In this document: one piece after another, positions 7,112 through 43,578 of the stretch
How the letters are laid out: every line of letters starts with the position of its first letter
Numbering within the stretch: the first letter of the stretch is position 1
DNA from: Gemmatales bacterium
GTDB taxonomy: Bacteria > Planctomycetota > Planctomycetia > Gemmatales > HRBIN36
Assembly (NCBI GenBank): GCA_041640595.1
Contig: JBEPZY010000008.1
Span: forward strand, 66,566 to 130,565
DNA: 64,000 bases
Direction: 5' to 3'
The notes under the pieces: model-generated
Databases searched by the model: none
What the model was told of the DNA's origin: nothing
Seen by the model: only the letters and a program-made list of their open reading frames with translations
Made by a program: the position numbers and the translations under genes

Positions 7112-8095
7112 ATGAAAACAGTGCAGCACAGTCGTACGGACTCCGGTGTTCTACGCATCGCTGCGCCGGCAAAAGTGAATCTTTTCCTGGAAGTGCTCGG
7201 TCGGCGCGACGACGGTTTCCATGAGATTGAAACGTTGATGGTGCAGGTCGGGCTGTGCGATACTCTGAGCGTCGAGGAAACAGCCCCGGCACAGGTGCAT
7301 CTGGAGGTGATCAAGGGCGGTGATTGTGAGGAGTTCGGTGTTCAGCTGCCTGACTCTGGGCGGGACAATCTGGTCTGGCGGGCCGCCGAATCTTTGCGCC
7401 AGCATACGCAATGCCCACGCGGTGCCCGTATCGTTTTAGAAAAGCGCATCCCCATCGGTGCCGGGCTGGGAGGAGGTTCGAGCGATGCGGCTGCGACTTT
7501 GCGCTTGCTTGATTTACTCTGGCAGCTTGCCTTGCCCACCGAGGAACTGATGTCGCTGGCGGCCAGTCTGGGCAGTGACGTACCGTTCTTTCTCAACGGG
7601 CCGGTCGCCTGGTGTCGCGGTCGTGGTGAACGGGTCGAACCTTTCTCCGGTATGTTTCCGTGCTGGTTCCTGTTACTGTCGCCGGCGATGCTGGTGAGCA
7701 CGGCTCGCGTGTACCAGCATGTGCGGATTCCCGAGCAACCGCGGTCCGGTTCTGAGTTGGTCGTTCGTTTGCGGGAGAAAAACGTCGAGGCCTTGCGCTC
7801 CGCGCTCTTCAATCGCCTGGAAGAAGCGGCTCTGGAAGCCTATCCGCAATTGCGAGCAATACGGGAAACACTTGATGTCTGCGGATTAACGCACGCTCAG
7901 TTGAGCGGCAGCGGTGGCACTTTTTTCGCAGTGTTTGCAGTTGCCGAAGAGGCACACCAGGCCGCCGAAGATTTCCAACGCCATTACGCGAGTCGCGGTG
8001 GTGTGCCGGTGCGCACAATAGTCGTACCTTCGTTCCTCAACGCACCTACGCCGGAAGGCGAACCGCCAGAATCGGCCCAAAACGATCCGCGATAG
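7112..8095 (+). CDS. ispE: 4-diphosphocytidyl-2-C-methyl-D-erythritol kinase
   Basis: APAKVNLFLEVLGRRDDGFHEIETL and the GHMP kinase motif PIGAGLGGGSSDAAA. Confidence 0.93.
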   Translation: MKTVQHSRTDSGVLRIAAPAKVNLFLEVLGRRDDGFHEIETLMVQVGLCDTLSVEETAPAQVHLEVIKGGDCEEFGVQLPDSGRDNLVWRAAESLRQHTQCPRGARIVLEKRIPIGAGLGGGSSDAAATLRLLDLLWQLALPTEELMSLAASLGSDVPFFLNGPVAWCRGRGERVEPFSGMFPCWFLLLSPAMLVSTARVYQHVRIPEQPRSGSELVVRLREKNVEALRSALFNRLEEAALEAYPQLRAIRETLDVCGLTHAQLSGSGGTFFAVFAVAEEAHQAAEDFQRHYASRGGVPVRTIVVPSFLNAPTPEGEPPESAQNDPR

Positions 8096-14619: not shown

Positions 14620-15680
14620 GGAGCACAAGAGCGGCGGGCGTCAGCCCGCCGTGGTTCGGGAAACGCACTTGCTGGACGATCCGATTTGCGTTCGGCGAAC
14701 AACCGCACTAGGAGCGGCGGGCGTCAGCCCGCCGTGGTACCGAAAAACGCACCTGCAACGGGGAGCGATTTTCGGGCACTGATTGCATTAGCCACGCACG
14801 ACGGGCCAGTGTACCACGGGGGGCTTACGCCCCCCGCTCTTGGTTGTGCGTGCGGTAGAGCCATGACGAGAGCGGCTTACGTTACCGGGACGCTTCGCCG
14901 CACAGCCACGGCTGGCTTACCCCAGCCGCTCCTGGTGCACGGTGTCGGTCGCGCGAAAAAATAACGACATTCGCGGTGCACAAACGCACATTCTACAGGA
15001 GCGGCGGGCGTCAGCCCGCCGTGGGTTGGCAAACGCGCTTGCAGGACGATTCGATTTGTGTTCGGCGAATAACCGCACCAAGAGCGGCGGGCGTCAGCCC
15101 GCCGTGGTACCGAAAAACGCACCTGCAACGGGGAGCGATTTCCGGGAACTGATTACATTCGCCACGCACCACGGGCCAGTGTACCACGGGGGGCTTACGC
15201 CCCCCGCTCTTGGTTGCGCGTACGGTAGAGCCGTGACAAGAGCGGCTTATGTTACCGGGACGCTTCGCCGCACAGCCACGGCTGGCTTACGCCAGCCGCT
15301 CCTGGTGCACGGTGTCGGTCGCGCGAAAAAATAACGACATTCGCGGTGCACAAACGCACATTCTACAGGAGCGGCGGGCGTCAGCCCGCCGTGGTTCGGG
15401 AAAGGCACTTGCAGGACGGTTCGATTTGCGTTCGGCGAATAACCGCACGAGGAGCGGCGGGGGTCAGCCCGCCGTGGTACCGAACAGCGCACCTGCAACG
15501 GGGAGCGATTTCCGGGAACTGATTACATTCGCCACGCACGACGGGCCAGTGTACCACGGGGGGCTTACGCCCCCCGCTCCTGTGTTGCGGTGCGAATGTC
15601 TGCCGGCAAAAAAGCGATTTTTGCGATGGACGAACGCATGTTCACAAGAGCGGCGGGGGTCAGCCCGCCGTGGGTGACAA
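14620..15680. repeat. ~2.9 copies of a 370-bp higher-order tandem repeat built from GC-rich hairpins
   Basis: GGTGTCGGTC recurs at 14941 and 15311 (370-bp period). Each unit holds two GGCGGGC-GTCA-GCCCGCC hairpins 83 bp apart. Each also holds GGGGGGC-TTAC-GCCCCCC, GGCTGG-CTTACS-CCAGCC and CGCGAA-N12-TTCGCG. Confidence 0.95.
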
Positions 15681-29470: not shown

Positions 29471-30112
29471 GGGCTATCCGGTGCCATTTTTCAGGGTTTT
29501 CCCGTACTACGGTGCAGTGCGGCTCCGCAAACCGGCAGGGAATATAGTTTCCGCTTCCGGGCTTAGGGTACGTTACCGCAAGCCAGCCAAACCAGCAGAC
29601 GGCACGGCTGTGTTATGCTGTCCAGTGAACGATGCTGGCAGCGCAAGTTGGCCAAGCCGGGTCGTTTACTGGGTAACGCTTGGTGCTCGGATGCAAAACC
29701 ATACTGGCCAGGCGGGCCGGAATACTCCCTGGGAAGCGTCGGACGGGATGTGCTTCTCTCAGGGATGGCCCTGCACGGGCCCGCAGGAGTAGCAGCCCTG
29801 GTCGGAATGGTGGTGAAGCGGGCCATCATTAACGCATTATCCCGACTGGACTAACGGCATTTTGCGGACTATAACGATTGCAATGGATGTGGGGAGATTG
29901 TGTGTCGGGTTGAGGATGGAAGGGACAGCGGGGGATAAGAATTTTCCCCCTCACACCGCTGGTTGTAACTTAGACTACAAAAGCGGGAATAACACCTGCC
30001 GGAACCGCTGGCCAGAAAAGCGACACTAATTTAAGGCAGCCATTCCCGCAAATAGACGGGCGGAGCATATCTGGCCAAACAACCTCCGAAGTTGCTGGAA
30101 AAGGAGAGGAGC

Positions 30113-33100
30113 ATGCTGCGACGGCGAGAAGTCCAACGGGGTGCGGCCCTTGCGGCGACGCTGGTCTTCTGGAGCGTGTTGCACGGCGACCCGGTCAATG
30201 TGCGAAAAGATGAACGCCCAAGTTCACCGCAGCCGACGGACCTGGGCCAGTTTTCTCAGGAAAAGTTGCGCCAAGAGGGGCTGTTGACCTATGAAACGCA
30301 GGATAAGGAAATCCTCTTTGCGCTGAAATTGCGCGTTCGTCTGAACCACACAGTTAACCAGCCGCGAGATTTCGTTGTTTTGTTCGACACCACAGCCAGT
30401 CAGGCAGGTGAAAGCTGGTTGGTGCAGCTGGCCCTGCTCAAGGAGCTTTGCCGGCAAATCAGCGACCAGGATCGCATCCGCGTGATCACTGTCAACACTC
30501 AGCCCGGCGAATTGACGGCGGGTTTCGTTCGCAAGGGCGATCCTGCACTGGAAAAGGCTCTCCAGCAGCTCTCCGACATCACGCCGATGGGTGCCGCCGA
30601 TCTGAAAGCCGCTCTCGACAAGGCCATCGAGAGCCTGGACATTCAGCCTGGCCGTCAGCCGGTGGTGGTGTACATCGGGGACGGCATGAGCAGTTTGCGG
30701 CCCATCGGCGGGCAAGAACGCCTTCGTTATGCTGAAACTTTCAACCGCCTGCGGGTCCCCTTCTATGCCATCCCGATCGGGTTCCGCCTCGACCCTGAAT
30801 TTTTGCACGGCATGACCGGAAGCACCGGCGGGGCCGTATGGCGGGTTGACATCCGTTACAGTGTGCCGGAACTGTGGAAACAATTTTTGCCGCAGCTGGA
30901 AGTGCCCGTGCTGTATCCGATCGAATATCAGTTGCCAGCGGAAGTCGCCGAAGCCTACCCGACGAAATTACCGCCTTTGCGTGCGGACACGTCAACCTTG
31001 ATCGTTGGCCGCCTGCGCCAACTTCCGCAAAAATTCGCCTGGCAAGTCAAGGGTACGGTGCAGGAGCAACCGGTGCAGGTGAGCGGCGAGGAAAAAGTAG
31101 TTCCGCCGGATGTCAGTATGTTCTTCCTCAAGGCGTTGGTAGAACAAGGCCGCAAAGATCGCGAAGCACCCGCGTTGTTACCTGCGGATCGCATGCTGGT
31201 GATGGCCCACAATCAGGTGCGAATGGTACGCGAAGAACTGCTGGCTCAAGGACGTTTGGCCATCCGCATGGATCGGCTTGACCTGGCCCGGCAACTGTTC
31301 GAGCAAGCGCAGCAGCTGGTGCCTCACGACCCGGAAGCCCGAGCCGCCGTCCGTTTGGTCGAACGGTTGCAGCAAGCTCCCGATGCAGCCCAGCGGCGTG
31401 AGCTTCTCGAACGGGGCTTAGCGCAAGCCGGACCAGCAGGCGGCGGTGGAGCCGCAGCCGCACAGCCCAACGCCAAGCCCGACCCGCAAGCCGAGGATTT
31501 ACTGCGCCGTCAGGAGCAGATCATTCGCATCCTCGAGCAGCAACTCAAAAACGACATTGACGAAGCGTTACGGCAGCTGGATCGGCCATTGACAGCGGCA
31601 GAAGCTAACGAGTGGCTGGCGCGGCTGAAACTTTTGACCGAAACCGTCCAGCGCGAAACGCAGATCGGCCCGCAGGTCAGAGAACAATTATTGCAGCGCC
31701 TGGCTGCAGCGATGCGTCAACTTGAGCGCCGATTAGACGAACAACGTCGTCGCGAAGCCGAAGCTCAGGCGCGAGAAATGCAGGCTCAGGAACTGGCTCG
31801 CCGTCAGGAACAGGTACTGGATGAACAGGCCCGCGTGCGGCAACTGATGCAGCAGTTCCATGCCCTGGTGCAGGCGAATCGGCTCATGGAAGCGTATCGC
31901 AAGGGCTTACAGATCGCGCAAGCGACCCCGGGTGAGTCGATCGGTGTGGCGACGTCGAGTCAGGCCTTAGCTTCGCGGTATCTAGGTGAATCCCAACGTC
32001 TGGTTCAGGAACGGCAGGCAAAGTACCTGGCCGCCATGCTGGAAATCGAACGCTCGCATGTGCCCTTCCCGGACGAGCCGCCTATCACGTTTGCTCCTGC
32101 CAGCTTTTACGAAACCAAGATTTTCCGCAACTGGAACGAATTATCACGACACCGTATCAAGCGGTGGCTGGTCAGCTATCTGGGCGAAGCACCATCGGAA
32201 CGTGCTCAGGAAATCGAACGGATGCTGTCGCAACCAAGTCCGCTTCTGGATCGCGACTTCCCCGCTGACACTCCGCTAAACCTGGTTCTGGAAACCATCG
32301 AGAAGAAGCTCAACCTTCCGATCCGCATAGACTTTGAGGCTTTCGGTGAAGAAGCGGCGAAATTTGATCCGCAGCAGATGACGCTCAAAAAGGCTGTGCG
32401 GGTCAGAAATATGTCGCTGGGGATGATCTTGCACGATGCGCTGGCCAGTGTCGAACCCCAGGCCACTTATATCATCCGGCGGGATACCATCGAAATTACC
32501 AGTCCGCAAAAGGCCATCGCTGAAAAGGTTCTTCGCGTGTATCCCGTGCCGGAACTGGTTTTGCCACCGCTATTCGGAGGCAACCCGTTCCAGCTCAACA
32601 CCATGATTTTCGGCTTTGGTTTCCAGATGGGCGTGCCCATGATGATGTGGGGGATGATGATGGGTATGCCTGGCATGATGATGGGCATGCCCGGCATGAT
32701 GATGGGTATGCCTGGCATGATGATGGGTATGCCCGGCATGATGATGGGAATGCCCGGCATGATGATGGGCATGCCTGGCATGATGATGGGGTTCCCCGGC
32801 ATGATGATGATGGGCGGTATGATGATGGGTATGATGATGGGCATGCCCGGCATGATGATGGGAATGCCCGGAATGATGATGGGGTTCCCCGGCATGATGA
32901 TGATGGGTGGCATGATGATGGGCATGATGATGGGTATGCCCGGCATGATGATGATGGGCGGTATGATGATGGGCGGCATGATGATGGGTGGCATGATGAT
33001 GGGTGGTTTGATGGCCATGGGCGGACCTAACCTGTTTGCAACCAATAGCGCGCCCATGCTCATCGAGCTTATCAAGCAAGTCGTTGGCGGGCCGGGCGAC

Positions 33101-34774
33101 TGGTATATTGACCCGATGAACATGATGATGCTGACCATGATGGGCCAGCAGCCGCCACAAGACTACAACCCTCTTCTGGCCAATTACATCGGTTACTATG
33201 ACCCGGCGTTTGCACTGGTGGTAAGGGCGACAGCGCGCCTGCATGAGCGCGAAACCCGCACGTTGACTTTGCCGGCAGCCGCAGGGGGCGGCGGTGCTGC
33301 TGGGGGTATGGGGCAAGCGGGTCATGGGGAACGCCATTTCGCCCACGCCGATATTGTCCGCGACGTCGAGGGAGTCATTGGCGGATTGGTGGGTGCACAG
33401 GCTTTGCGAGGCCGTGGGAAGGTAGTCGCTGCTCAGCTGGATGCAAAGAAGGCCTGGCAGGAGGCTCTGGCACGCAGCGATAAACCGGTGGATGCGGATG
33501 TGCTCTTTGCTGGGGCTGCTGCGCTGGCCGCCAGTGGGCACTGGAATCACGCGGCTGAGTTACTCAAAGCCGGTTTGCGTCAGGGTGGCGTAGCCCGCGA
33601 CTGGATGTTCGAAGCAATCGCCCTGGCTATTCGCATTCAGCACGGCGACCCGGAGGAAGAAGTTCGGTGCCTGCTCTCCGCAGCGGATTTGCGGCCCAGC
33701 GATGCTTTCGGTTTGCTCCAGGGCGCTGAAGTGCTGGCACGGCATGGCAAATACGCCCCGGCTATCTCGCTGACTCGATTGGCTGCTGAGCAAAACCCTG
33801 AATTGCCGCATCCGTACCTGTTCGCCCTGCAACTGGCGAGCAAAGCGAAGGACGTGCCCACGGTACGCTGGGCGGCGATGGAATTGCTCCGCCGCGATTG
33901 GCCCATCCAGTGTGCTGAACTTCACGCTACCGCTCAACGCACGCTCGAAGACCTGGCGGAAGCATTGCGGAAAGAAGGTCGCGCTCCGGATGCCGAAGCG
34001 CTTGCCCTGCCCGCAGCACAAATCCAGCGCCGCGATCTCGTGATTCGGCTGTTGTGGACTGGAAACGCCGATCTCGATCTGGAAATTTCCGAACCCTCCG
34101 GAAGCACCTGTTCCCTCACCCAGCGAGTAACTGCCAACGGTGGCAGTTTGCAAGCTGATTTTGATGCGGAACATCAGACCGAAATCTACAGCGTCGCAGA
34201 AGGTTACTCCGGCGAATATCGCGTGACCGTCAAACCGCGCTGGGGTAAGCCGGTGGCCGGCAAAGCGGTCGTCGAAATCATCACGCATCAGGGCACGCCC
34301 AACGAGCAGATTCGCCGCGAGATGATCACCGTGGCCAGGGAGCCGGTAACCCTGACCGTGCAGCTGCGCGACGGCCGACGCCAGCAACCTGCACCGGTAG
34401 CGCCGCTGGAAGCTTATCGCCTGGGCATTGACCCATTCTATCGGCCGACCTGGCCGGTCCCCGGTGCTGAGATGCTGCGGCAGTTAGCGGTTCCTATCAC
34501 CACGGGTATTGAAATACGTCGCTCGCCGTTCGGCCCGACCAGTATGGCCGATCCTTTGCCGCGACCAGGCGATGACGATAACTCCGGCCCGCAACTTGGG
34601 CCCGGTGGTGCGCCAGGCGTAGTGGTCATACCCGCCGGTGCCCTGGTCAATACGCAAGCTCTGGTCCATAGCGACCGTCGCTACGTTCGCCTTTCCGCAA
34701 ACGTGACCTTCAGTGGCATTACAGGTTTTGTGCCTGTGCCGTTGGCCAGCCTCAGCCCTGGCATACGGCCGTAA
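30113..34774 (+). CDS. giant secreted multidomain protein: signal peptide, vWA, coiled coil, STN-like module, Met/Gly repeat, helical repeats, DUF2135-like beta domain
   Basis: ATG at 30113 preceded by AAGGAGAGGAG (the track starts at TTG 30092). vWA with MIDAS-like DTTAS (30386-30400) and VVVYIGDGMS. About 400 aa of Q/R/E-rich coiled coil. LVIRLLWTGNADLDLEISEPSGSTC...GYSGEYRVTV resembles DUF2135. Confidence 0.9.
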   Translation: MLRRREVQRGAALAATLVFWSVLHGDPVNVRKDERPSSPQPTDLGQFSQEKLRQEGLLTYETQDKEILFALKLRVRLNHTVNQPRDFVVLFDTTASQAGESWLVQLALLKELCRQISDQDRIRVITVNTQPGELTAGFVRKGDPALEKALQQLSDITPMGAADLKAALDKAIESLDIQPGRQPVVVYIGDGMSSLRPIGGQERLRYAETFNRLRVPFYAIPIGFRLDPEFLHGMTGSTGGAVWRVDIRYSVPELWKQFLPQLEVPVLYPIEYQLPAEVAEAYPTKLPPLRADTSTLIVGRLRQLPQKFAWQVKGTVQEQPVQVSGEEKVVPPDVSMFFLKALVEQGRKDREAPALLPADRMLVMAHNQVRMVREELLAQGRLAIRMDRLDLARQLFEQAQQLVPHDPEARAAVRLVERLQQAPDAAQRRELLERGLAQAGPAGGGGAAAAQPNAKPDPQAEDLLRRQEQIIRILEQQLKNDIDEALRQLDRPLTAAEANEWLARLKLLTETVQRETQIGPQVREQLLQRLAAAMRQLERRLDEQRRREAEAQAREMQAQELARRQEQVLDEQARVRQLMQQFHALVQANRLMEAYRKGLQIAQATPGESIGVATSSQALASRYLGESQRLVQERQAKYLAAMLEIERSHVPFPDEPPITFAPASFYETKIFRNWNELSRHRIKRWLVSYLGEAPSERAQEIERMLSQPSPLLDRDFPADTPLNLVLETIEKKLNLPIRIDFEAFGEEAAKFDPQQMTLKKAVRVRNMSLGMILHDALASVEPQATYIIRRDTIEITSPQKAIAEKVLRVYPVPELVLPPLFGGNPFQLNTMIFGFGFQMGVPMMMWGMMMGMPGMMMGMPGMMMGMPGMMMGMPGMMMGMPGMMMGMPGMMMGFPGMMMMGGMMMGMMMGMPGMMMGMPGMMMGFPGMMMMGGMMMGMMMGMPGMMMMGGMMMGGMMMGGMMMGGLMAMGGPNLFATNSAPMLIELIKQVVGGPGDWYIDPMNMMMLTMMGQQPPQDYNPLLANYIGYYDPAFALVVRATARLHERETRTLTLPAAAGGGGAAGGMGQAGHGERHFAHADIVRDVEGVIGGLVGAQALRGRGKVVAAQLDAKKAWQEALARSDKPVDADVLFAGAAALAASGHWNHAAELLKAGLRQGGVARDWMFEAIALAIRIQHGDPEEEVRCLLSAADLRPSDAFGLLQGAEVLARHGKYAPAISLTRLAAEQNPELPHPYLFALQLASKAKDVPTVRWAAMELLRRDWPIQCAELHATAQRTLEDLAEALRKEGRAPDAEALALPAAQIQRRDLVIRLLWTGNADLDLEISEPSGSTCSLTQRVTANGGSLQADFDAEHQTEIYSVAEGYSGEYRVTVKPRWGKPVAGKAVVEIITHQGTPNEQIRREMITVAREPVTLTVQLRDGRRQQPAPVAPLEAYRLGIDPFYRPTWPVPGAEMLRQLAVPITTGIEIRRSPFGPTSMADPLPRPGDDDNSGPQLGPGGAPGVVVIPAGALVNTQALVHSDRRYVRLSANVTFSGITGFVPVPLASLSPGIRP
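32626..33023 (+). repeat. in-frame 21-nt tandem repeat encoding (MPGMMMG)n
   Basis: Units of ATG CCY GGC ATG ATG ATG GGN with synonymous variation. The higher-order pattern ending FPGMMMMGGMMMGMMMG occurs twice. Confidence 0.97.
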
Positions 34775-34966: not shown

Positions 34967-35554
34967 TTAAGGAGTCGGTTTGCTCGGCGCGGTTACGTTG
35001 TCACTCGTACCAGCGGGGATGGACGAGCTGGCAGCACGGCTGCGAGCATCCAGATCGGCTTTGGTGTACAAGACCAGTCCTGCTCCGACAGCTGCCAGAA
35101 TGATGCCAACATAAAACAGCGGGCCGGGACGCAGTCCCGCCGCAGGCGGATGCCAGGCCAGGCTGACCAGCGTATTGACGATTGGGGCACCCGCGAAAAC
35201 CAGCGGAGCGATAAACAGAGGACTGCCACCGTTTTTGATGGAAAGGATAATGCACAAGGCTCCCGCGGCGCCGGCAGCACCGGCCAGGGTCGCAAAACTA
35301 ATGCCTCGCCAGTTGATCTGACCCTGACGCCAGAATTGCAACCGTTCGCCGCCAGCCAGGTCGAAGTGAAGCAACAGCAACGGCACCACCACCGCCGTCA
35401 CAAAATACGCCAGGCCCACACACAAAAACGCGCGCACCGCACCGGCCGGTGGTCGGCCTTCACCCAGTTCCTTCTGGCCCTCGTGCAAAGTCGGAACATA
35501 TACTCCCCACGATAAAATCGCCCCCAGCACAAAAGCCAGCCATAGCATCTTCAT
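34967..35554 (-). CDS. polytopic membrane protein, unknown function
   Basis: Start trimmed to MKMLWLAFVLGAILSWG (ATG 35554, SD GAGGAG upstream). Four to five hydrophobic helices. The track ORF (to 35776) adds a non-protein-like leader. Confidence 0.7.
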   Translation of the reverse strand: MKMLWLAFVLGAILSWGVYVPTLHEGQKELGEGRPPAGAVRAFLCVGLAYFVTAVVVPLLLLHFDLAGGERLQFWRQGQINWRGISFATLAGAAGAAGALCIILSIKNGGSPLFIAPLVFAGAPIVNTLVSLAWHPPAAGLRPGPLFYVGIILAAVGAGLVLYTKADLDARSRAASSSIPAGTSDNVTAPSKPTP

Positions 35555-36652
35555 GGCTCTCCTCAAAAGTCCTGACGGCCAGTTATCGCCTCGTTTCGAT
35601 CGTAAATGGGCTACGGACGATGGCTGCTGAAAAGTCGCACCACAATTGCCCGAAAATTCGCTACCACGCCGGACACACGATTCGGCAGCTATTGCTGACA
35701 AGGAATGCCCGTTTGATCCCGGCGAGTTGCTGCGGATTGTATTCGGACAAAAACTCGCTAACAAGATGCCTGCCATGGACGCGCCCTAACTTGAACGCAC
35801 ATTCGTATCGCCTGAGACGAATTGCAAACGCCGCGATTTCCAACCCTGCAAAACGCCTTTGCACGTTCAGCTTCATCGCATCATGGGTGCGTAACAAGCA
35901 AAGGCCGCGATGCCGGCACAGGTCGAACGCTCGCCAGCCAACCGATGCGATCCCGACGACCGGCCCCCGCTCGGTAACCTTTCCTGGCGGAAAACTGGAT
36001 CAGCACATACCCAGGACATTTCGCTAGCGATTGGCTCTCAAAAAAGCATTCCTTGCTGGAAGAGCAGGCAGTCGCACTGCGTCCTGTGCTCTGGTTTCCG
36101 CCAGCCGACAGCATGCTTGCCTTGCAGAAAATGGCATTCCCTCGCGGCGCAACGGATGTGGGATTGGCTCAGCTTGTCGAAACGACGTGGCGTTTCACGG
36201 CCAGTGATCGTGTTTTCGCAACTACGCTGCCCGAACGCACGGGAAAACCGGTCACAACACGGCTGTGCTCGCGTCCCACCGCACCTCATTCTCCATAGCG
36301 TTGTTGCCGGCTTGTCCGCAGGGAGAAAGTTCGCAACAACGGCTAAGGCAGGCGGATATGCGCAACGAAGCCGCCTTCTGTGCCAATTGGGCTAACCAGG
36401 AGCGCTAAACTCCCGGATACGAGCCCGGAATACGACGAAGCACCGTGCTTCTGAGTCCCATCGGGGAGCCTGCACCGCAAAACTGGCCAGCGAACGTGCG
36501 CATGGGCGGTGATGTTTTTCGGGAGCATCGCCAGACGGTGCGCTATTTTCCCACCCCGGACGGTGAGCGATTGTGTCTGGCGCAACGCTTTCGGAAGCGG
36601 CTGGCTACACCATCGCGCATCCGGCAAACGACGCAGTTGCGGCGGTTCTTGG

Positions 36653-36793
36653 TCAGGCGGCTTTTTCTTTCGTTACCTTGGACAGGTGGTTCTGCAATCG
36701 GTCGAGTATTTTTTTCAGATGGGCAATCTTGCGGTCCACCCGCTGGAGACGCCGCAGCAATACTTGCCGTTTCTTTTCCTGCATGCTGGCCAT
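36653..36793 (-). CDS. small basic helical protein (46 aa)
   Basis: Not in the track (<60 aa). AGGAGG lies 8 nt upstream of the ATG at 36793. MASMQEKKRQVLLRRLQRVDRKIAHLKKILDRLQNHLSKVTKEKAA shows heptad-like Leu/Ile spacing. TGA stop at 36655-36653. Confidence 0.45.
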   Translation of the reverse strand: MASMQEKKRQVLLRRLQRVDRKIAHLKKILDRLQNHLSKVTKEKAA

Positions 36794-36866
36794 GCTCGTT
36801 TCCTCCTGCCTTGTGGCGAATAGATTTGGCTTGTCCGCAAACCGAAAGCGGCATTAACTGCATCGG

Positions 36867-37030
36867 CAATACCTTCGGTAACGATTAAGCAAAACGTTGC
36901 CAAGCATACCGCTGCCCCATTCGCCACCACGCAATACCTTCGGTAACGGTTGAGCAAAAGGTTACCAAACATACCGCTACCCCATCCGCCACCACGCAAT
37001 ATCTTCGGTAACAATTAAGCAAAAGGCCCC
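36867..37030. repeat. 2.6 copies of a 65-bp tandem repeat
   Basis: CAATACCTTCGGTAACGATTAAGCAAAACGTTGCC... starts at 36867, 36932 and 36997. Each full unit can form a GGTAAC(G)/(C)GTTRCC hairpin. Lies 75-240 bp upstream of the small ORF. Confidence 0.92.
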
Positions 37031-37200
37031 GATGATCCCGCCGGCATGCCGCCCACTCGCCCAGCCAGAATCCCCGCAACCTCCAGGCCAACAGAATCCG
37101 CTTGGGCTGGCCGGAAGGCGAAGTTTTTCGCTGGTTCGGATCGCGAGTATCCGTTTCAGAGTATCAGCGTTCGGAGTGTCAGTCAGGGCCCGTCGCCGGG

Positions 37201-37583
37201 CGGGCTTGCCGCTACGTTGATGCAAGTGGACGTGGGCCCTGACAGGTCCGCATGGGCGATCTCTGCCTTGACAGGTGGGTTTGCGGCTATGCTGATGCAG
37301 GTGATGGCTGCCGGTGTTATCGTCAGGGTACCAGCGACCATTGGCAGCGAGGTTCCCTGCCACGTTGATGCAAACGGTGGCCGTCAGCGTTACCGTGGGG
37401 CGATCGACTGGCGGTTGACAGGCGGGTTTGCCGCTACTTTGATGCAGGTGATGGCTGCCGGTGTTATCGTCAGGGTACCAGCGACCATTGGCAGCGAGGT
37501 TCCCTGCCACGTTGATGCAAACGGTGGCCGTCAGCTTTACCGTGAGGCGATCGACTGGCGGTTGCCAGGCGGGTTTGCGGCTA
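37201..37583. repeat. phased tandem array: ~73.5-bp subunits in a 147-bp dimeric unit
   Basis: GGGYTTGCSGCTA occurs at 37201, 37277, 37424 and 37571. The 147-bp units 37277-37423 and 37424-37570 are nearly identical. Alternate subunits carry GCCACGTTGATGCAAACGG (about 37357 and 37504). The last copy contains the NTPase stop codon (37581-37583). Confidence 0.95.
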
Positions 37584-39731
37584 CTGTTCCGAAGGGAGAC
37601 AGAGCAACCGCAGCAGGGCTTCGCAATGAGTTTGCAAGAAGTCGGCCAGATTGGGCAGCGGCGTTTCCTCGGGCAGAGTCTCGGTGAGAGCGGCGAACCA
37701 GCGCGGGAAGGCGTACAATTGGGCCAGGTCTTCAGCGCCCAGCGGCTCCAATCGCAAACGTTTGCCGCGAGACTGTGCTTCTTCCCACAGGGATTTGCTT
37801 TTGCCCGTCAGGTGCACGTCTTCCGCCGGGCGAAGCAGGACGAGCACATCCATAGCCGGCGGTTCCAAATCTAAAGCGGCGAGTTTGACCTGTAAATCGC
37901 GGAGTTTGCCGGGACCTCGCCCCAAAAACAATCCCACACCGAGCCGCCAGGGCTGACCGTCGCGGCAAGCCCAGTGGGCCAGCGTGAGCACACCGTAGGT
38001 TGGATGATTGCCGAAAGTCCATTCCGGTACCACATGCTGCAACCGCCACGCGCCCACTTTCACGCCGTGCTCCTGACACGCTTGCAAAAACGCACCCAGT
38101 CCGGCCTGCAATTCGCGAGTGGCACCAGTGATGGCACCCTCGGGAGCCAGTCGGATCCGGGCATCGGCTAATGCTTGCTCCCATAGTTTTTCCAGCAATG
38201 CCGCGAGGGAATCGCCCCCCTTGCTGCATTTGCTCCCGTCGGAAGTGTCGGAATGCTGCGGCGATTTTGTTTCCACAGCCTTGAGCACGGTAACTTGTTT
38301 GACCTCCGGTGGAATCGGTTCCGGTGGCGGAACTTCGACGTAGCCGACGTTTCCGGCAGCCCCATCCGCGACTGGCTCGGTTTCCTCGCTGGTTTCCTGC
38401 CCGTACACCAGACGGTCGAACAATCGGCGAAACTGTTGCAGCATGTCGCGCAATGTCGGTTCGGTGCGGGCAATTCGCAACACCTGTTCTTCATTGAACG
38501 GGAAAATCGGTGAAATTTCCGAGCCGAACTGTTCCAAAACTGGCCGCAAGCGCACCACCACCACCTTGCGAACCAGATCGGGCGTCGGTGGATCCAGCCG
38601 CACCGCTGCAACGCTTCCATAACCGGGCAGGTGAAGCGGATGATTGAGGCGATCCTGAATGTACCCGTCCAGGCTCGGCACGAAACGGTTCCAGAGTCCA
38701 CGTTCGGCAAAAATCAAAAAGCAGATGCCATCCACCTGATGCAGCACCTGCACCAGCCCTGCGAAGAAAGACTCGCTCACTTTGTGGCCATCTTCAGTAC
38801 GCCGAACCAGCAGCAGGTCCTCAAGCTGGTCGAAGGCGACCACTACCGGAATCCGCAACGTCAAGCAGATGTCCATAACTGCCCGCAACTGAGCCAGCAC
38901 CAGTTCCTGTCGGCTCGGTTGCACCTGGAAATCCAGTTCGGTGAAGCCGGTGGTCAGGAAATGTGCCAGGTCGTCCTCCTGTCCCAGGAGAATGGCCCGG
39001 GCAAAACCCTGATAAATACGGCGACGCATTTGCCCGGCCACACTGTGAACTTCGTTGCGATCCACAAACTGGCACACCTGTTCGTACACCAAACGCGGGT
39101 CCATCTGCACCTGCAACAGTGCCTGGCGAACCGGCAAAGTGCTGGAACGACCGAGCAGCTGGATCAACCATTGACAACGCTCCTCAGCCTGGGCCTGGCC
39201 CAGCCCTAACCGTCGCGCCCAGCGGGTCAAGGGCGGGGCTGGGAAAAGCTCCAGCCGAGCCGGGGCGTCGAGGGTTTGCAACCAGTTGCGCACCAGGCGT
39301 CGGGTCAGTTCCTCGCCGATATACACCAGCGGACGCACACCACCCTGGCAGGCACCGCTCAGCAAGGTGTCAATCAACTGAAAGAGCAGATATTCGAGAA
39401 AATCGCAACCTTTCTGATAGGTGCTGGGAGTTACCAGCAGCTGGCGACCCCGACCTGGACCGTGTTTGATGGAATGCAACAGATGGGTTTTCCCCGAACC
39501 TTTGTTGCCGAGGATGGGCAAAACTTCCGAATGGCGTCGTCCATCCTGGCGATACAATTCCACCGCGGCCAGAACCATCTCCCGTTCGCGGGCATACAGC
39601 TCCGGAACATGGTAACGGGCACAGAGTTCATCATCGGGATGGCGAGCAAAATAATTGCGAAACGGATTACCGTGTCGCCGCAGGGCTTCCAATGCCCGTT
39701 CGTGCACGTGAGTAGTAAGTGTGGCAGTCAT
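37581..39731 (-). CDS. P-loop NTPase (ORC/AAA_16/STAND-like) with large uncharacterised C-terminal region
   Basis: 716 aa. Walker A GNKGSGKT (39486-39509). Walker B-like VVVAFDQLED (38817-38846), about 220 aa downstream, implying a long helical insertion. No recognisable effector domain. Confidence 0.85.
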   Translation of the reverse strand: MTATLTTHVHERALEALRRHGNPFRNYFARHPDDELCARYHVPELYAREREMVLAAVELYRQDGRRHSEVLPILGNKGSGKTHLLHSIKHGPGRGRQLLVTPSTYQKGCDFLEYLLFQLIDTLLSGACQGGVRPLVYIGEELTRRLVRNWLQTLDAPARLELFPAPPLTRWARRLGLGQAQAEERCQWLIQLLGRSSTLPVRQALLQVQMDPRLVYEQVCQFVDRNEVHSVAGQMRRRIYQGFARAILLGQEDDLAHFLTTGFTELDFQVQPSRQELVLAQLRAVMDICLTLRIPVVVAFDQLEDLLLVRRTEDGHKVSESFFAGLVQVLHQVDGICFLIFAERGLWNRFVPSLDGYIQDRLNHPLHLPGYGSVAAVRLDPPTPDLVRKVVVVRLRPVLEQFGSEISPIFPFNEEQVLRIARTEPTLRDMLQQFRRLFDRLVYGQETSEETEPVADGAAGNVGYVEVPPPEPIPPEVKQVTVLKAVETKSPQHSDTSDGSKCSKGGDSLAALLEKLWEQALADARIRLAPEGAITGATRELQAGLGAFLQACQEHGVKVGAWRLQHVVPEWTFGNHPTYGVLTLAHWACRDGQPWRLGVGLFLGRGPGKLRDLQVKLAALDLEPPAMDVLVLLRPAEDVHLTGKSKSLWEEAQSRGKRLRLEPLGAEDLAQLYAFPRWFAALTETLPEETPLPNLADFLQTHCEALLRLLCLPSEQ

Positions 39732-39813
39732 GGCCTGCTCCTTGGCCTGGTCTGGCGGTCAGTTTTCATCGCCCTGGATTTGCTGCGTGCGGTTCCCACC
39801 GCTTTTGCGCCTT

Positions 39814-40623
39814 TCATAAACAGCCGTTGCCCGCAGGTGCGTTGTTCCCAGATGCCCGCAGGCTGACGTAATATGCGATGGCGTGGCCGACCAGCATGGC
39901 GAGTTCCGGTTCGGGAATTTCGTAAATCGGCCCTGCCCAGGGATGCAACACGATCTGCCCCTGCGCATACCATTGCCGCAACGCCTCCTGAAATTGTCCG
40001 ACACTCAGTTGCGGATGCTGCTGCCGCAGCTGGCGGAACAATTCCGGCAATGGGCAGTCTTCCTGGGGATGCGTCTCCTGCCAGCGGCGGAGGAAGGGCC
40101 AGGCAGTAGCTTTCAAAATGGCCGGATTGCCTGCCGCCCAGCCCTGTCGTGCCGAGGTTTTGAGTTCCTCGATCACACCGGCTACCCATTGCCGCAGTTG
40201 ATCCAGTTCCTCGCGGCAACGCTCCAGCATTTCGCCCCAGGTCTGCCATTGCTGCTGGCATTGAACAATCCGCTGCTGGAGTGCTTCCAGCGCGGTGGCT
40301 GGGTCGGTTTTGTGCAACAGCCACTGAAGCCCGGCTTCGGTCAGCGTGTACAGTGCGGTTACAGTTTTGCCTGCGGGTCGGCTGGCCACGCACTCCAACC
40401 AGCCCCGTCGCTGACACAGTTCGGCGGCCTGCTGACCCAACCGGGTTCGCGGAAATAAACCGGGATTGCGACCAGAGGCGATCAGCGGTAAGGGTTCCGG
40501 CGAGGATAACGCCTTTTTCAAAGCCGCGAGCACCAGCGATTCCACAGCGGCAGACGTATTGCCAGAATTATCGCTGACGGTAGAGCAAGCTCTTTGGGTT
40601 TCAAGAAGGGCCGACGTTTCCAT
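39814..40623 (-). CDS. hypothetical protein, putative double winged-helix with central coiled coil
   Basis: ATG at 40623 with GGAGGAA 8 nt upstream (the track starts at GTG 40629). wHTH-like segments QAAELCQRRGWLECVASRPAGKTVTALYTLTEAGLQWL and LSVGQFQEALRQWYAQGQIVLHPW. Lies 82 nt upstream of the NTPase on the same strand. Confidence 0.7.
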   Translation of the reverse strand: METSALLETQRACSTVSDNSGNTSAAVESLVLAALKKALSSPEPLPLIASGRNPGLFPRTRLGQQAAELCQRRGWLECVASRPAGKTVTALYTLTEAGLQWLLHKTDPATALEALQQRIVQCQQQWQTWGEMLERCREELDQLRQWVAGVIEELKTSARQGWAAGNPAILKATAWPFLRRWQETHPQEDCPLPELFRQLRQQHPQLSVGQFQEALRQWYAQGQIVLHPWAGPIYEIPEPELAMLVGHAIAYYVSLRASGNNAPAGNGCL

Positions 40624-40810
40624 GAACACTTCCTCCGATATTTTGCCGCAGTCGCGGCATTATGCCGCAATCCTGCCGCCGTGCAAGCCCAAATGATGGA
40701 CCGACAACGCAGGAAAAGCGGCGATGGTTCGCGTCCAGGGGAAGGTAGCTGAAAACAAACTCGTCTGGTTCACGATCAGGGCGGTTCCATTGCTCGGGCC
40801 AGCCATTGCG

Positions 40811-40834
40811 GTGCAACGATCGCGTTTTGCCAAC
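40811..40834 (+). promoter_or_regulatory. solitary copy of the GTGCA...CGTTTTGCCAAC motif upstream of the wHTH/NTPase operon
   Basis: GTGCAACGATCGCGTTTTGCCAAC. The 12-mer CGTTTTGCCAAC is identical to 29446-29457 (copy 4 of the array upstream of the giant gene). Lies about 190-210 bp upstream of the ATG at 40623, on the opposite strand. Confidence 0.4.
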
Positions 40835-40848
40835 CGCGCATTATTCCG

Positions 40849-41406
40849 TTATCGGGGCCAGTAGCGCACTCGCCCCAGGGCATCAAAAACTTCCGCGCTC
40901 ATGAGTTTCCAGGTGCCATCCGGTGCCGGTTCAAAACGCATGCGAATCAATAGCGGGGCCGACTCCCCGACCTGGCCTTCGTAACTGCCGGTGAAGGAAA
41001 TGTTCAGTTCTGCAATGAATGCCGTGCCATCGCCAGAGCGCTCGACTGTGAGTTTCCCGGAGCGAATCCGCGCGACATGGGGCAGCGTTCGCCGCAACTC
41101 CTGCTCCAGAGTGGCTCGATCTATTGAACCGGAACGGAATTTGTCGGCCACGTGGTGCAAGATACCATCGGCATCCTGCTTTTCCGCCGCGGCAACCATC
41201 GCCTGCACAGCCAGGATCACGCGCTCGCGGTCGGTGACTACCAGGTAATCGGCCAGCGCGATCAGAGCCATCACCAGCGCGGCACCGATCACACCGAGCA
41301 GGTAAACGGCACGCTGAGTGTACACCGTCACCAGCAAAAACAGCACGCCGGCACCCGCAACGATCCAGTAAGCTGAACTCGGCTCGTCAATCAGCCAGTC
41401 CCACAT
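40849..41406 (-). CDS. membrane-anchored hypothetical protein (NTF2/SnoaL-like C-terminal domain suspected)
   Basis: 185 aa with two N-terminal TM helices followed by a soluble domain. Family not recognised. Confidence 0.6.
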   Translation of the reverse strand: MWDWLIDEPSSAYWIVAGAGVLFLLVTVYTQRAVYLLGVIGAALVMALIALADYLVVTDRERVILAVQAMVAAAEKQDADGILHHVADKFRSGSIDRATLEQELRRTLPHVARIRSGKLTVERSGDGTAFIAELNISFTGSYEGQVGESAPLLIRMRFEPAPDGTWKLMSAEVFDALGRVRYWPR

Positions 41407-41493
41407 GGTTCGACCCCGAGCAAATCAGCCAAGTTGCCTGCTGGCTTAGAGCATCGCCTGAAGGATTCTGTGTCGGATCGCCTGAGAGATCAG

Positions 41494-43578
41494 CTAAGCC
41501 GGTTGGTTGCTCTCAGCCGGATGAGCATCGAGCCAGGCACGAATCGCCTCCTGTCCGATCAGCGGTTGCTGACACGTTCCCTGCTCGCACAAGTAAATGG
41601 CGGGAGTCGGTGATAGCTTGTCGGCCAGTAGTGCAAACGGAGCGTAGCCGTGTGCCGGAAGAGTCGGATCGAGCCACGCCACGATGCGTCGCGGTTCAAA
41701 AGTTTGCCACAACGAAGCCCAGGCCTGCTGCAACACTGGCTCGGTCACGGGGCCCGACAGGACAATTTCGCGCACTGGTCCGATGGCGAAATCCACGCCG
41801 CATAGGAAGTGCCCGAACGCCGTCGGCAGGCGTTCGGCCAGTGGTGTCAGCCAGCGGAAAATGGCGTCGGCACAGTCACGGAAATCGGCTTGGCCTGTGA
41901 AATGCCATAAGCGCAGGAGCATCCAGGCAGCGGCACTGTTGCCCGAAGGAGTCGAACCGTCCTGGGCATCTTTCTGCCGAACCAGGAGCGGTTCATGGGC
42001 CAGTTGGGCGTAGAACAAGCCTCCGCCTTCCGGATCACGAAAACGTGCCATCATCTGCTCGGCCAGCACCACCGTATTTTCCAGCCAGTGTATTTCACCT
42101 GTGCATTCGTAAAGCGACAGCAGGGCATCTGCGAACAAGGCGTAGTCGTCCAGGAAGGCGGGAATTTCCGGTAAACGATCCGGCAAACACGCGTGGAAAA
42201 GTTCGCCCGACCTCGGCTGCAAATGGGCGAGAATCCAGTTCGCGGCCCGACACGCCAGCTCGAGATAATGTGGATCAAAGACGCGGCCAGCCAGCGCCAG
42301 TGCCTGAATCGTCAGGGCGTTCCAGGCCGTGAGGATTTTTTCGTCGCGCGACGGTGCAATGCGTTGCTGTCGGGCTGCCAGTAATCGGCCCCGCGCTTCC
42401 TCCAGCCGGGCGAGCAACTCCTGCTCGGACATCTTGAGCAAGCGTGCGCAGACCGGCAGCGGTTTCGCCTGAGCCAAGACCTGTTTTCCTTCCCAGTTGC
42501 CAGTCTCGGTAACATCGTAAACGTAGGCGACAATATCATACAGTTCGGGTGGCAAAATCGCCCGCAGCTCCGTTGCCGTCCAGACATAATACTTGCCTTC
42601 TTCACCTTCGCTGTCGGCGTCGAGACTGCTGAAAAACGGGCCGTCCGGAGCCATCATCTCGCGTTCCAGCCACGTCAACGTTTGCTCCACAACCTGGCGA
42701 TAACGAGCCACACCGCTCACCAGCCAGGCTTCGGTATAAGCCAGGCTCAAAAGGGCGTTGTCGTACAACATTTTCTCGAAATGCGGTACCAACCAGCGCT
42801 CATCGGTGCTGTAACGGTGAAAACCGCCGCCCACGTGATCGTAAATGCCACCGCTGGCCATGCCATCCAGGGTAAGCTTCACCATTTCCAAAATGTCTGC
42901 CTGCCGAAAGCGGTGAAAGGCACGCAACAAGGCACGCAGTTCCATAGCATGAGGAAATTTAGGAGCGCCGGCTAACCCGCCGTAAACGCGATCCAGATTC
43001 TGCTGCCATACCTCGACTAAGTGCCGCAACAATTCTTCGGAAGGCTCACTTTCTGGCAGGGATAGATGCAGGGTTTTTTGCAAATGTGCAGCAACTTCGT
43101 CGGCGGTCTGAAGGACATCGGCACGGCGTAATTGCCAGGCCTGGGCTAGTGCGACGATCACATCGCGGAATCCCGGTCGCCCCCAGCGCCGCTCCGGTGG
43201 GAAATAGGTGCCGGCATAAAATGGCTTCAGGTCGGGCGTCAGGAAGACCGACATCGGCCAGCCTCCCTGTCCGGTCATGGCTACGACCGCCTGCATGTAC
43301 AACTGATCCAAATCCGGCCGCTCTTCGCGATCCACCTTGATGTTCACGAAATGCTCATTGAGTAAGCGTGCAATCTCAGGGTTTTCAAAACTTTCCCGTT
43401 CCATGACATGGCACCAGTGGCAGGCCGCATAACCGATACTCAGGAAGATAGGCTTGTTCTCCTGCCGTGCCCGTTGCAGTGCCTCATCCGACCACGGATA
43501 CCAGTCCACCGGATTATCGGCGTGTTGCCGCAGGTATGGACTTGCCGAGTCCGCCAGCCGATTCTTTTTGCCCGTCAT
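41494..43578 (-). CDS. thioredoxin-domain protein, DUF255 / YyaL family
   Basis: NRLADSASPYLRQHADNPVDWYPWSDEALQRARQENKPIFLSIGYAACHWCHVME, followed by a six-hairpin glycosidase-like C-terminal region. 694 aa. Confidence 0.93.
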   Translation of the reverse strand: MTGKKNRLADSASPYLRQHADNPVDWYPWSDEALQRARQENKPIFLSIGYAACHWCHVMERESFENPEIARLLNEHFVNIKVDREERPDLDQLYMQAVVAMTGQGGWPMSVFLTPDLKPFYAGTYFPPERRWGRPGFRDVIVALAQAWQLRRADVLQTADEVAAHLQKTLHLSLPESEPSEELLRHLVEVWQQNLDRVYGGLAGAPKFPHAMELRALLRAFHRFRQADILEMVKLTLDGMASGGIYDHVGGGFHRYSTDERWLVPHFEKMLYDNALLSLAYTEAWLVSGVARYRQVVEQTLTWLEREMMAPDGPFFSSLDADSEGEEGKYYVWTATELRAILPPELYDIVAYVYDVTETGNWEGKQVLAQAKPLPVCARLLKMSEQELLARLEEARGRLLAARQQRIAPSRDEKILTAWNALTIQALALAGRVFDPHYLELACRAANWILAHLQPRSGELFHACLPDRLPEIPAFLDDYALFADALLSLYECTGEIHWLENTVVLAEQMMARFRDPEGGGLFYAQLAHEPLLVRQKDAQDGSTPSGNSAAAWMLLRLWHFTGQADFRDCADAIFRWLTPLAERLPTAFGHFLCGVDFAIGPVREIVLSGPVTEPVLQQAWASLWQTFEPRRIVAWLDPTLPAHGYAPFALLADKLSPTPAIYLCEQGTCQQPLIGQEAIRAWLDAHPAESNQPA

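Follow-up and report, generated by a model that had tools for sequence, protein, structure and literature searches.

The proteins closest to the one described here are scattered over several branches of the P-loop nucleoside triphosphatases (NTPases). In ORC, Cdc6 and DnaA an extra helical element of one or two helices, where the initiator-specific motif sits, lies ahead of the Walker B strand, and a winged helix or helix-turn-helix follows the lid. In the KAP NTPases (PF07693) the two Walker motifs are separated by a large insertion that holds transmembrane helices, the STAND ATPases (NACHT, NB-ARC and nSTAND, with the Avs and MalT types) carry repeat sensors or fused effectors, and AAA_14-DUF4143 and ATPase_2-DUF234 proteins are ORC/Cdc6-like ATPases fused to restriction-endonuclease-fold domains. 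Planctomycetes of the Gemmata group are unusual in their cell biology, and many of the genes they conserve lack an annotation. Here we describe a pair of genes in a 64-kb stretch of a Gemmatales genome (contig JBEPZY010000008.1, positions 66,566 to 130,565, of assembly GCA_041640595.1), referred to below as the window. The pair encodes a 716-residue P-loop NTPase with a giant insert and an orphan C-terminal fold, together with a 269-residue partner that belongs to no described family, and forms a strongly constrained, obligately paired module. We put at about one half the probability that it is an ATP-switch complex with its adaptor, fixed in the chromosome and inherited vertically, present in Gemmatales and some other bacteria, and not a mobile defence system.

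Both genes lie on the minus strand, as do all features of the pair given below. The partner gene (39814..40623, stop codon included) begins with an ATG at 40623, preceded at a spacing of 7 nucleotides (nt) by the Shine-Dalgarno sequence GGAGGA (40636-40631, read from the sequence); an in-frame GTG two codons further upstream would give an alternative product of 271 residues. A spacer of 82 nt (39732..39813) separates it from the NTPase gene (37581..39731, stop codon included), which also starts with ATG and has its own Shine-Dalgarno sequence within the spacer, AAGGAG at 39743-39738, 6 nt from the start. No terminator was predicted on the minus strand in the 82-nt gap. The two genes therefore stand as the initial annotation had described them, as an operon with this gap and a good ribosome-binding site before the first gene. 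That annotation had also asked whether the two genes are always neighbours. Of the independent contexts, 14 include upstream sequence (L001, L002, L004, L005, L006, L007, L008/L009, L010/L011, L012, L013, L014, L015 and two contigs listed without DNA), and in all of them a partner homologue lies directly upstream of the NTPase in the same orientation; where the DNA itself is present, the homologue is detected by tblastn. In L002 only the last 53 residues of the partner are present, at the contig edge. The spacing between the two genes ranges from a gap of 121 nt to an overlap of 17-31 nt, the overlaps being found in distant relatives. In L010/L011 the partner (7541-8017) was called at only 158 residues, with tblastn similarity starting at 7526, and is either truncated, lacking the first winged helix, or called from the wrong start.

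The domain layout of the NTPase was read from an AlphaFold model (predicted local distance difference test score, pLDDT, 80.5) and the invariance of its residues was scored over 27 diverse sequences, down to 25% identity. An N-terminal helical region (residues 1-62; 39546..39731), with a family-wide invariant NPF motif (P23 and F24) and an HVPEL motif, leads into strand 69-75 and Walker A, GNKGSGKT (residues 75-82; 39486..39509), in which G75, G78, G80, K81 and T82 are invariant and which is followed by the likewise invariant H83. After the P-loop come helix 81-90, strand 98-100 and helix 111-124. After core helix 2, and before the strand of Walker B, the chain passes through an all-helical insert of about 165 residues (approximately residues 125-291; 38859..39359); residues 134-291, which lie between strands 69-75 and 296-300, are modelled as helices and nothing else, R236 of the insert is invariant, and there are no hydrophobic transmembrane segments in it. 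Walker B, PVVVAFDQLED (residues 295-305; 38817..38849), has invariant D301 and E304 and is carried by strand 296-300; the helix that follows (303-332) holds the invariant F322. From Walker A to VVVAFDQLED (296-305) is 221 residues, in agreement with the spacing of about 220 and the large helical module proposed initially. Strand 4 (336-343) ends in the invariant E343 and is followed by a helix with the invariant R361, 18 residues beyond the end of the strand (38649..38726 for both elements). Short helices and small strands then lead to a lid-like subdomain (residues 384-445; 38397..38582), made up of three helices (384-443), with invariant R394, P411 in an FPF motif, and R428.

A conserved Walker A after a strand and a conserved Walker B on a strand place the protein in the ASCE division of the P-loop NTPases. 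As the catalytic residues are invariant across the 27 sequences, the Walker motifs, which align with catalytic positions, are real and constrained. The NTPase is very likely to be catalytically active. Mean column identity over a 32-sequence alignment is 65%, with invariant blocks in every folded region. From the order of the motifs, E343 is a candidate for the sensor-1 position and R361 for an arginine finger, and R394, in the first lid helix, would be a candidate sensor 2. The sequence GRGPGK was considered as a second P-loop and rejected, as it is wrongly spaced and distant members do not keep its lysine.

Assignment of the NTPase to a family was approached through sequence profiles and structural comparison. 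With the curated profiles of Pfam, NCBIfam, PADLOC and PHROGs nothing above threshold was obtained for either protein, and neither was placed in a housekeeping family. None of the profiles for nuclease, protease, TIR or SIR2 domains matched, consistent with the earlier remark that no effector could be recognised. A Pfam scan of the 27 members at E ≤ 0.1 gave AAA_16 in 27/27 (best E = 8e-10) and AAA_22 in 26/27, with weak matches to NACHT (16/27), ORC-CDC6-like (13/27), AAA_14 (5/27), KAP (4/27) and ATPase_2 (3/27), which bears out the AAA_16/ORC/STAND-like context first noted around Walker A. Some of the database homologues carry a precomputed PF13191 tag. The weak matches of the window NTPase to Hda, DnaA and Sll1717 cover the Walker A region only. 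When structures were compared with Foldseek against the PDB and BFVD, no match was found at E ≤ 0.001 for either protein; the best for the NTPase were weak AAA+ matches to TRIP13 (E = 0.011), ORC2 (1w5s; E = 0.065, query-normalised TM-score 0.12) and the clamp loader gamma subunit. Profile searches against solved structures, using the full ATPase, the partner, the insert-deleted core or the C-terminal module, returned generic P-loop or coiled-coil noise only; for the insert-deleted core DnaA (E = 0.043) and ORC4 (E = 0.067) were matched over the P-loop region alone. The protein can safely be described as an AAA_16/ORC-like P-loop ATPase with an exceptional insert, outside every described subfamily, the core falling, weakly, among the AAA_16, ORC/Cdc6 and STAND-type P-loops.

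The likeness to AAA_16, ORC/Cdc6 and DnaA/Hda lies in the Walker A context, GxxGxGKTHLL, and in the Walker B, hhhhFDxLE. With AAA_16 and ORC/Cdc6 the protein further shares a helical lid, the extra helical element ahead of the Walker B strand and the order of motifs after Walker B, including L-x-x-P-x-x-x-x-L-x-x-h-h-x-x-R. The succession of Walker B, a polar end to strand 4, an arginine at +18, L..P....L..hh..R and the lid is presumably that of ORC/Cdc6-type AAA+ proteins, an equivalence drawn from motif order. It differs from ORC, Cdc6 and DnaA in that the insert amounts to about 165 residues as against one or two helices, in that the lid is followed not by a winged helix or helix-turn-helix but by a disordered linker and an orphan α/β module, and in that there is no significant sequence match to solved members, even with the insert deleted. 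The KAP NTPases, too, have a large insertion separating the Walker motifs, are matched weakly in Pfam by 4 of the 27 members, and supply, through a giant-virus model, the highest query-normalised TM-score among the NTPase fold matches (0.19); the insert here is, however, soluble and charged, whereas KAP inserts hold transmembrane helices, and the scores are far from significance. As in the AAA_14-DUF4143 and ATPase_2-DUF234 proteins, an ORC-like ATPase is followed by an endonuclease-like C-terminal module, and AAA_14 and ATPase_2 are weakly matched in 5 and 3 members respectively, but there is no DUF4143 or DUF234 profile match here, and neither an obligate winged-helix partner nor a giant insert is known as a feature of those families.

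The region beyond the lid had been noted as some 300 residues matching nothing. It falls into two parts: an acidic, variable and disordered linker (residues 446-506; 38214..38396; pLDDT <50), which in the Gemmatales clade carries a short conserved strand motif, PPxVKxVxV, precedes an α/β module of about 210 residues (507-716; 37584..38213). In the AlphaFold model the module runs helix-helix-strand-strand-strand-helix-strand-helix-strand-helix, with the invariant W517, an HPxYG motif that includes the invariant G580, and a conserved DLxxKL (D612 and K616). The core, helix-strand-strand-strand-helix-strand, is similar to the fold of restriction endonucleases, and EcoT38I (probability 0.96, E = 0.05) and several phage 'restriction endonuclease' models are matched weakly in structure. 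A PD-(D/E)xK motif is not found, there being no conserved acidic or lysine residues on strands 581-589 or 595-601, and D612 and K616 lie on a helix. The module is an orphan in sequence: no Pfam family matched any of 13 isolated C-terminal modules and the PDB sequence-profile search gave no relative. We read it as a non-catalytic binding module.

The partner had been proposed to consist of two winged-helix-like segments separated by a coiled coil rich in glutamine and tryptophan, and its AlphaFold model (pLDDT 86) has just this arrangement. A first winged-helix-like unit (residues 21-105; 40309..40563), with invariant G55-L56-F57 in a PGLF motif and A66-A67, is joined to a Q/W-rich helix of 54 residues (108-161) and a return helix (167-184; together 40072..40302), which in the model probably serve as a dimerisation or spacer element. 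The second unit (residues 187-256, of which 192-255 are winged-helix-like in the model; 39856..40065) is the best-conserved part of the protein, with the motifs DCPLPELF, GxF(H/Q)DxLR, HPWxGP and PEPxxAL. The first unit is basic (pI 8-10 in 14/16 homologues) and the second acidic (pI 5.3-6.6 in 16/16). Given also the conservation of the second unit, a polyanion is the likely ligand of unit 1 and a protein that of unit 2. As the whole partner is near neutral, its binding to DNA is no more than plausible. Scans of Pfam and NCBIfam placed the partner in no family, and searches of solved structures by sequence profile gave generic coiled-coil matches only. By Foldseek the best matches were regulators of the PadR, MarR and Fur types (up to 0.99 in probability) and ScpB (0.82), none of them significant (best E = 0.04; query-normalised TM-score ≤ 0.24). 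Two winged-helix-like units are also a feature of adaptors of the ScpB/MukE type and of PadR/MarR proteins, but there is no match to these families in sequence, a 54-residue helix intervenes between the units here, and the ATPase, unlike that served by ScpB/MukE, is not of the SMC/ABC type.

These regulator-like folds bear on the possibility that the pair is a signal-sensing transcription switch, with a STAND or MalT/AfsR-like NTPase whose C-terminal module would sense a ligand and a PadR/MarR-like partner that would be the DNA-binding subunit for a regulon. AAA_16 is the ATPase family of the MalT- and AfsR-type regulators, NACHT and nSTAND are matched weakly in up to 16 of the 27 members, the ATPase is a multidomain protein with a non-catalytic C-terminal module as in STAND proteins, and the first winged helix of the partner is basic. 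Against this, the ATPase has no TPR, WD40, LRR or other repeat sensor, no fused effector profile, no PADLOC match and no DNA-binding domain of its own; its conservation is unusually strong and uniform over all 716 residues, the supposed sensor included, and its evolution is very slow in comparison with STAND proteins. No conserved target gene adjoins the pair, whose flanks vary, and the partner fold matches are statistically weak (E ≥ 0.04). We regard a transcription switch of this kind as unlikely, though worth keeping in mind.

What points to vertical inheritance is the distribution of the family. The initial annotation had called the pair an orphan; in a large protein collection there are more than 1,371 homologues of the NTPase, the best 120 of which are all full length. 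Identity falls in tiers, from 97% in the closest relatives, through about 80% in hot-spring Gemmatales metagenome-assembled genomes and 'bacterium HR36', to a plateau of 56-64% (about 60%) formed by hundreds of metagenome contigs, with named members from Gemmatales/Gemmataceae. A distant tier of full-length proteins (660-750 residues) is 25-32% identical, the named members belonging to Candidatus Entotheonella palauensis. Other loci in this tier adjoin genes that typify Planctomycetota (PSCyt1 or DUF1501), and some of these relatives are presumed to come from other Planctomycetota. Stepwise divergence of this kind is to be expected under vertical descent. When 1.84 billion cluster representatives were searched exhaustively with a profile, 468 clusters (at 50% identity) matched at E ≤ 1e-3, and 206 clusters at E ≤ 1e-30; the family is bounded. 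Evolution of the partner is much faster: 17 homologues could be detected, at 30-59% identity. A full-text literature search returned nothing on the NTPase/partner family.

The genomic surroundings are those of a chromosome. In 12 of the 13 contexts in which flanking genes could be seen the neighbours are ordinary chromosomal genes with housekeeping roles (rpmF-plsX-fabD, folC, miaB, fmt, comEC, accC and Ser/Thr kinases), variable between loci, and the contigs bearing the pair reach 1.15 Mb, or 8 Mb for the Entotheonella member. Beyond the pair itself the window shares no synteny with related loci. In three independent Gemmataceae contigs the order Bac_globin (on the opposite strand), partner, NTPase is kept, the Bac_globin gene lying divergently upstream of the pair (L006 4849-6969, L015 3695-5107 and the contig of P0084); two of these three also hold a LOG-family (Lysine_decarbox/LDcluster4) gene. 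A DUF255-thioredoxin gene is found just upstream of the pair in two contexts. In the window the upstream context comprises a DUF255-thioredoxin gene and a 185-residue membrane protein, whose open reading frame (ORF; 40849-41406, minus strand) lies immediately upstream of the partner. At the N-terminus of this protein two hydrophobic helices are predicted, followed by a C-terminal domain that is soluble; it matches no Pfam family, and a homologue was found only in the same-species contig L007.

The initial annotation had regarded NTPase and DNA-binder pairs of this kind as typical of conflict systems and of initiator or partition modules. Both proteins were compared with the 5,027 defence-protein models of PADLOC-DB v2, which gave zero families at E ≤ 1, and with PHROGs, which gave no match; tblastn against 50,697 phage genomes and 72,556 plasmids found no relatives, nor were any found among the viral contigs of IMG/VR. 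Taken with the graded divergence, the retained synteny in Gemmataceae and the housekeeping neighbours, the lack of mobile-element and defence matches speaks against both a typical defence island and an initiator or partition module of the plasmid type. An NTPase identity of about 60% held across the order is not the patchy pattern of an island. In appearance the pair is a housekeeping complex specific to its lineage, more than a system of anti-phage defence.

A replication initiator or partition module, derived from an integrated plasmid or other mobile element, would draw on the double winged-helix partner, the ORC/DnaA-like GxxGxGKTHLL and the weak DnaA and Hda matches, and it would make iterons or centromere-like sites of the tandem repeats immediately downstream of the NTPase stop codon. 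These form two arrays (37268-37585 and 36866-37026 of the window), with units of 147 bp (2.2 copies, 94% identity) and 65 bp (2.5 copies, 88%). The 147-bp repeat begins at the stop codon itself, so that the operon does run directly into the array as first described. The expectation that such repeats always follow the pair failed: they are absent beside it at every other compared locus and are confined to the source genome and the near-identical, same-species L007, the contig of which ends inside them. ORFs across the arrays have no Pfam match, and in a scan of 35500-41500 no Rfam family was matched, so that the repeats correspond to no known RNA. Within the window the pair is flanked by neither an integrase nor a transposase nor a tRNA (there is no tRNA in the whole of it), and the GC content at the pair (about 0.59) is unremarkable, being the same as in the remainder of the window. 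All long contigs with the pair are chromosomal, reaching megabase scale, and none of the plasmids or phage genomes holds a homologue. An initiator or partition role is thus largely refuted and we consider it very improbable.

In one distant subclade (L008, L010 and L014) a third gene, encoding 228-243 residues, lies downstream of the NTPase (L008 10061-10747; L010 10212-10943; L014 9039-9752). It overlaps the NTPase stop codon in L008 and L014 and follows after 168 nt in L010. The N-terminal part of its product is soluble, the C-terminal helices are hydrophobic, and the motif LAV.L.Y.DGRD.YE..LP..ITP is conserved. No Pfam or PHROG family matches it, and the window and the Gemmatales loci hold no homologue.

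In the ATP-switch complex that we favour, the 716-residue protein would be an active AAA_16/ORC-Cdc6-like NTPase that binds ATP through K81, T82, D301 and E304. It may oligomerise, the active site probably being completed in the oligomer by R361 of a neighbour, and R394 would sense the nucleotide. The nucleotide state would be relayed to the two lineage-specific modules, the helical insert and the tethered C-terminal α/β module. The partner would act as adaptor: its long helix would dimerise it, the acidic, conserved second winged helix would dock on the ATPase, and the basic first winged helix would bind a polyanionic target, most likely DNA. In the distant subclade the translationally coupled membrane protein could anchor the complex. 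We infer that the cellular process is chromosome-associated housekeeping or regulation. A more specific proposal is a lineage-specific chromosome machine, an ORC/Cdc6-like ATPase with its two-winged-helix partner that would serve to license replication, to load the helicase, to organise the chromosome or to divide the Gemmatales cell independently of FtsZ. The layout is comparable to that of Cdc6 with Cdt1/WhiP, or of an ATPase with a kleisin-accessory-like adaptor, and a membrane anchor in some relatives would suit such a machine, but as a specific assignment it is improbable.

Several observations weigh against a vertically inherited ATP-switch complex. The AAA_16 (PF13191) score of the window protein is 17.3 bits (E = 0.0073), below the gathering threshold of 32.6 bits, and the fold matches are all weak (Foldseek E ≥ 0.0025). 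Both proteins have a whole-protein pI of about 6.4-6.5, neither being basic, so that DNA binding is not assured, and winged helices may be purely protein-binding. No experimental or homology-based evidence links the pair to any process. The scan of the genome collection found only 5 loci, a number kept low by its use of exact peptide patterns. The family also occurs in Candidatus Entotheonella, a second phylum, and L008 is the exception among the contexts, with IS91 and DDE transposases and a ThiF/UQ_con (E1/E2-like) cluster upstream of the pair. Together the Entotheonella occurrence and the L008 context indicate some lateral movement.

It is because of these two observations that we retain, at a low probability, an anti-phage or conflict system, in which the NTPase would be a sensor acting with a DNA binder and the effector would be either the endonuclease-like C-terminal module or the membrane protein of the distant subclade. 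Conflict systems often contain P-loops of the STAND, KAP or ORC-like kinds, the weak restriction-endonuclease-like folds (EcoT38I and the phage models) would suit a nuclease, and a third, membrane-protein gene in one subclade and a family spread over two phyla would not be out of place. With no PADLOC model matched, no PD-(D/E)xK motif conserved on the strands of the module, no relatives in phages, plasmids or viral contigs, ordinary neighbours nearly everywhere and a graded divergence with synteny kept, such a system seems to us distinctly unlikely. As a separate observation, the ThiF (E1-like)/UQ_con (E2-like) cluster, which lies upstream of the Entotheonella-like triad on the opposite strand (L008 1-7000 and L009 1-2635), includes several unannotated small genes and may serve ubiquitin-like conjugation in bacteria, or defence; in L008 transposases of the IS91 type and DDE transposases break it up.

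Being apparently vertically inherited and absent from mobile elements, the module is a concrete and testable candidate for a lineage-specific housekeeping function. It need no longer be counted as a candidate defence system, so that the effort of screening it by phage challenge can be spared. Were the ATP-switch complex to act on the chromosome or in division, this would be an important finding; at present the pair is a well-delimited, uncharacterised family.

Two further features of the window lie apart from the pair. A 1560-residue ORF on the plus strand (30092-34774) has an N-terminal VWA_3 domain and a long low-complexity stretch rich in Met, Gly and Pro (MMMGMPG repeats), a composition unusual among bacterial proteins, which is encoded by tandem repeats of 21/42/63 bp at 32654-32989. 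The strongest tandem repeat in the window is at 14625-15589, with a period of 370 bp, 2.6 copies and a Tandem Repeats Finder score of 1718.

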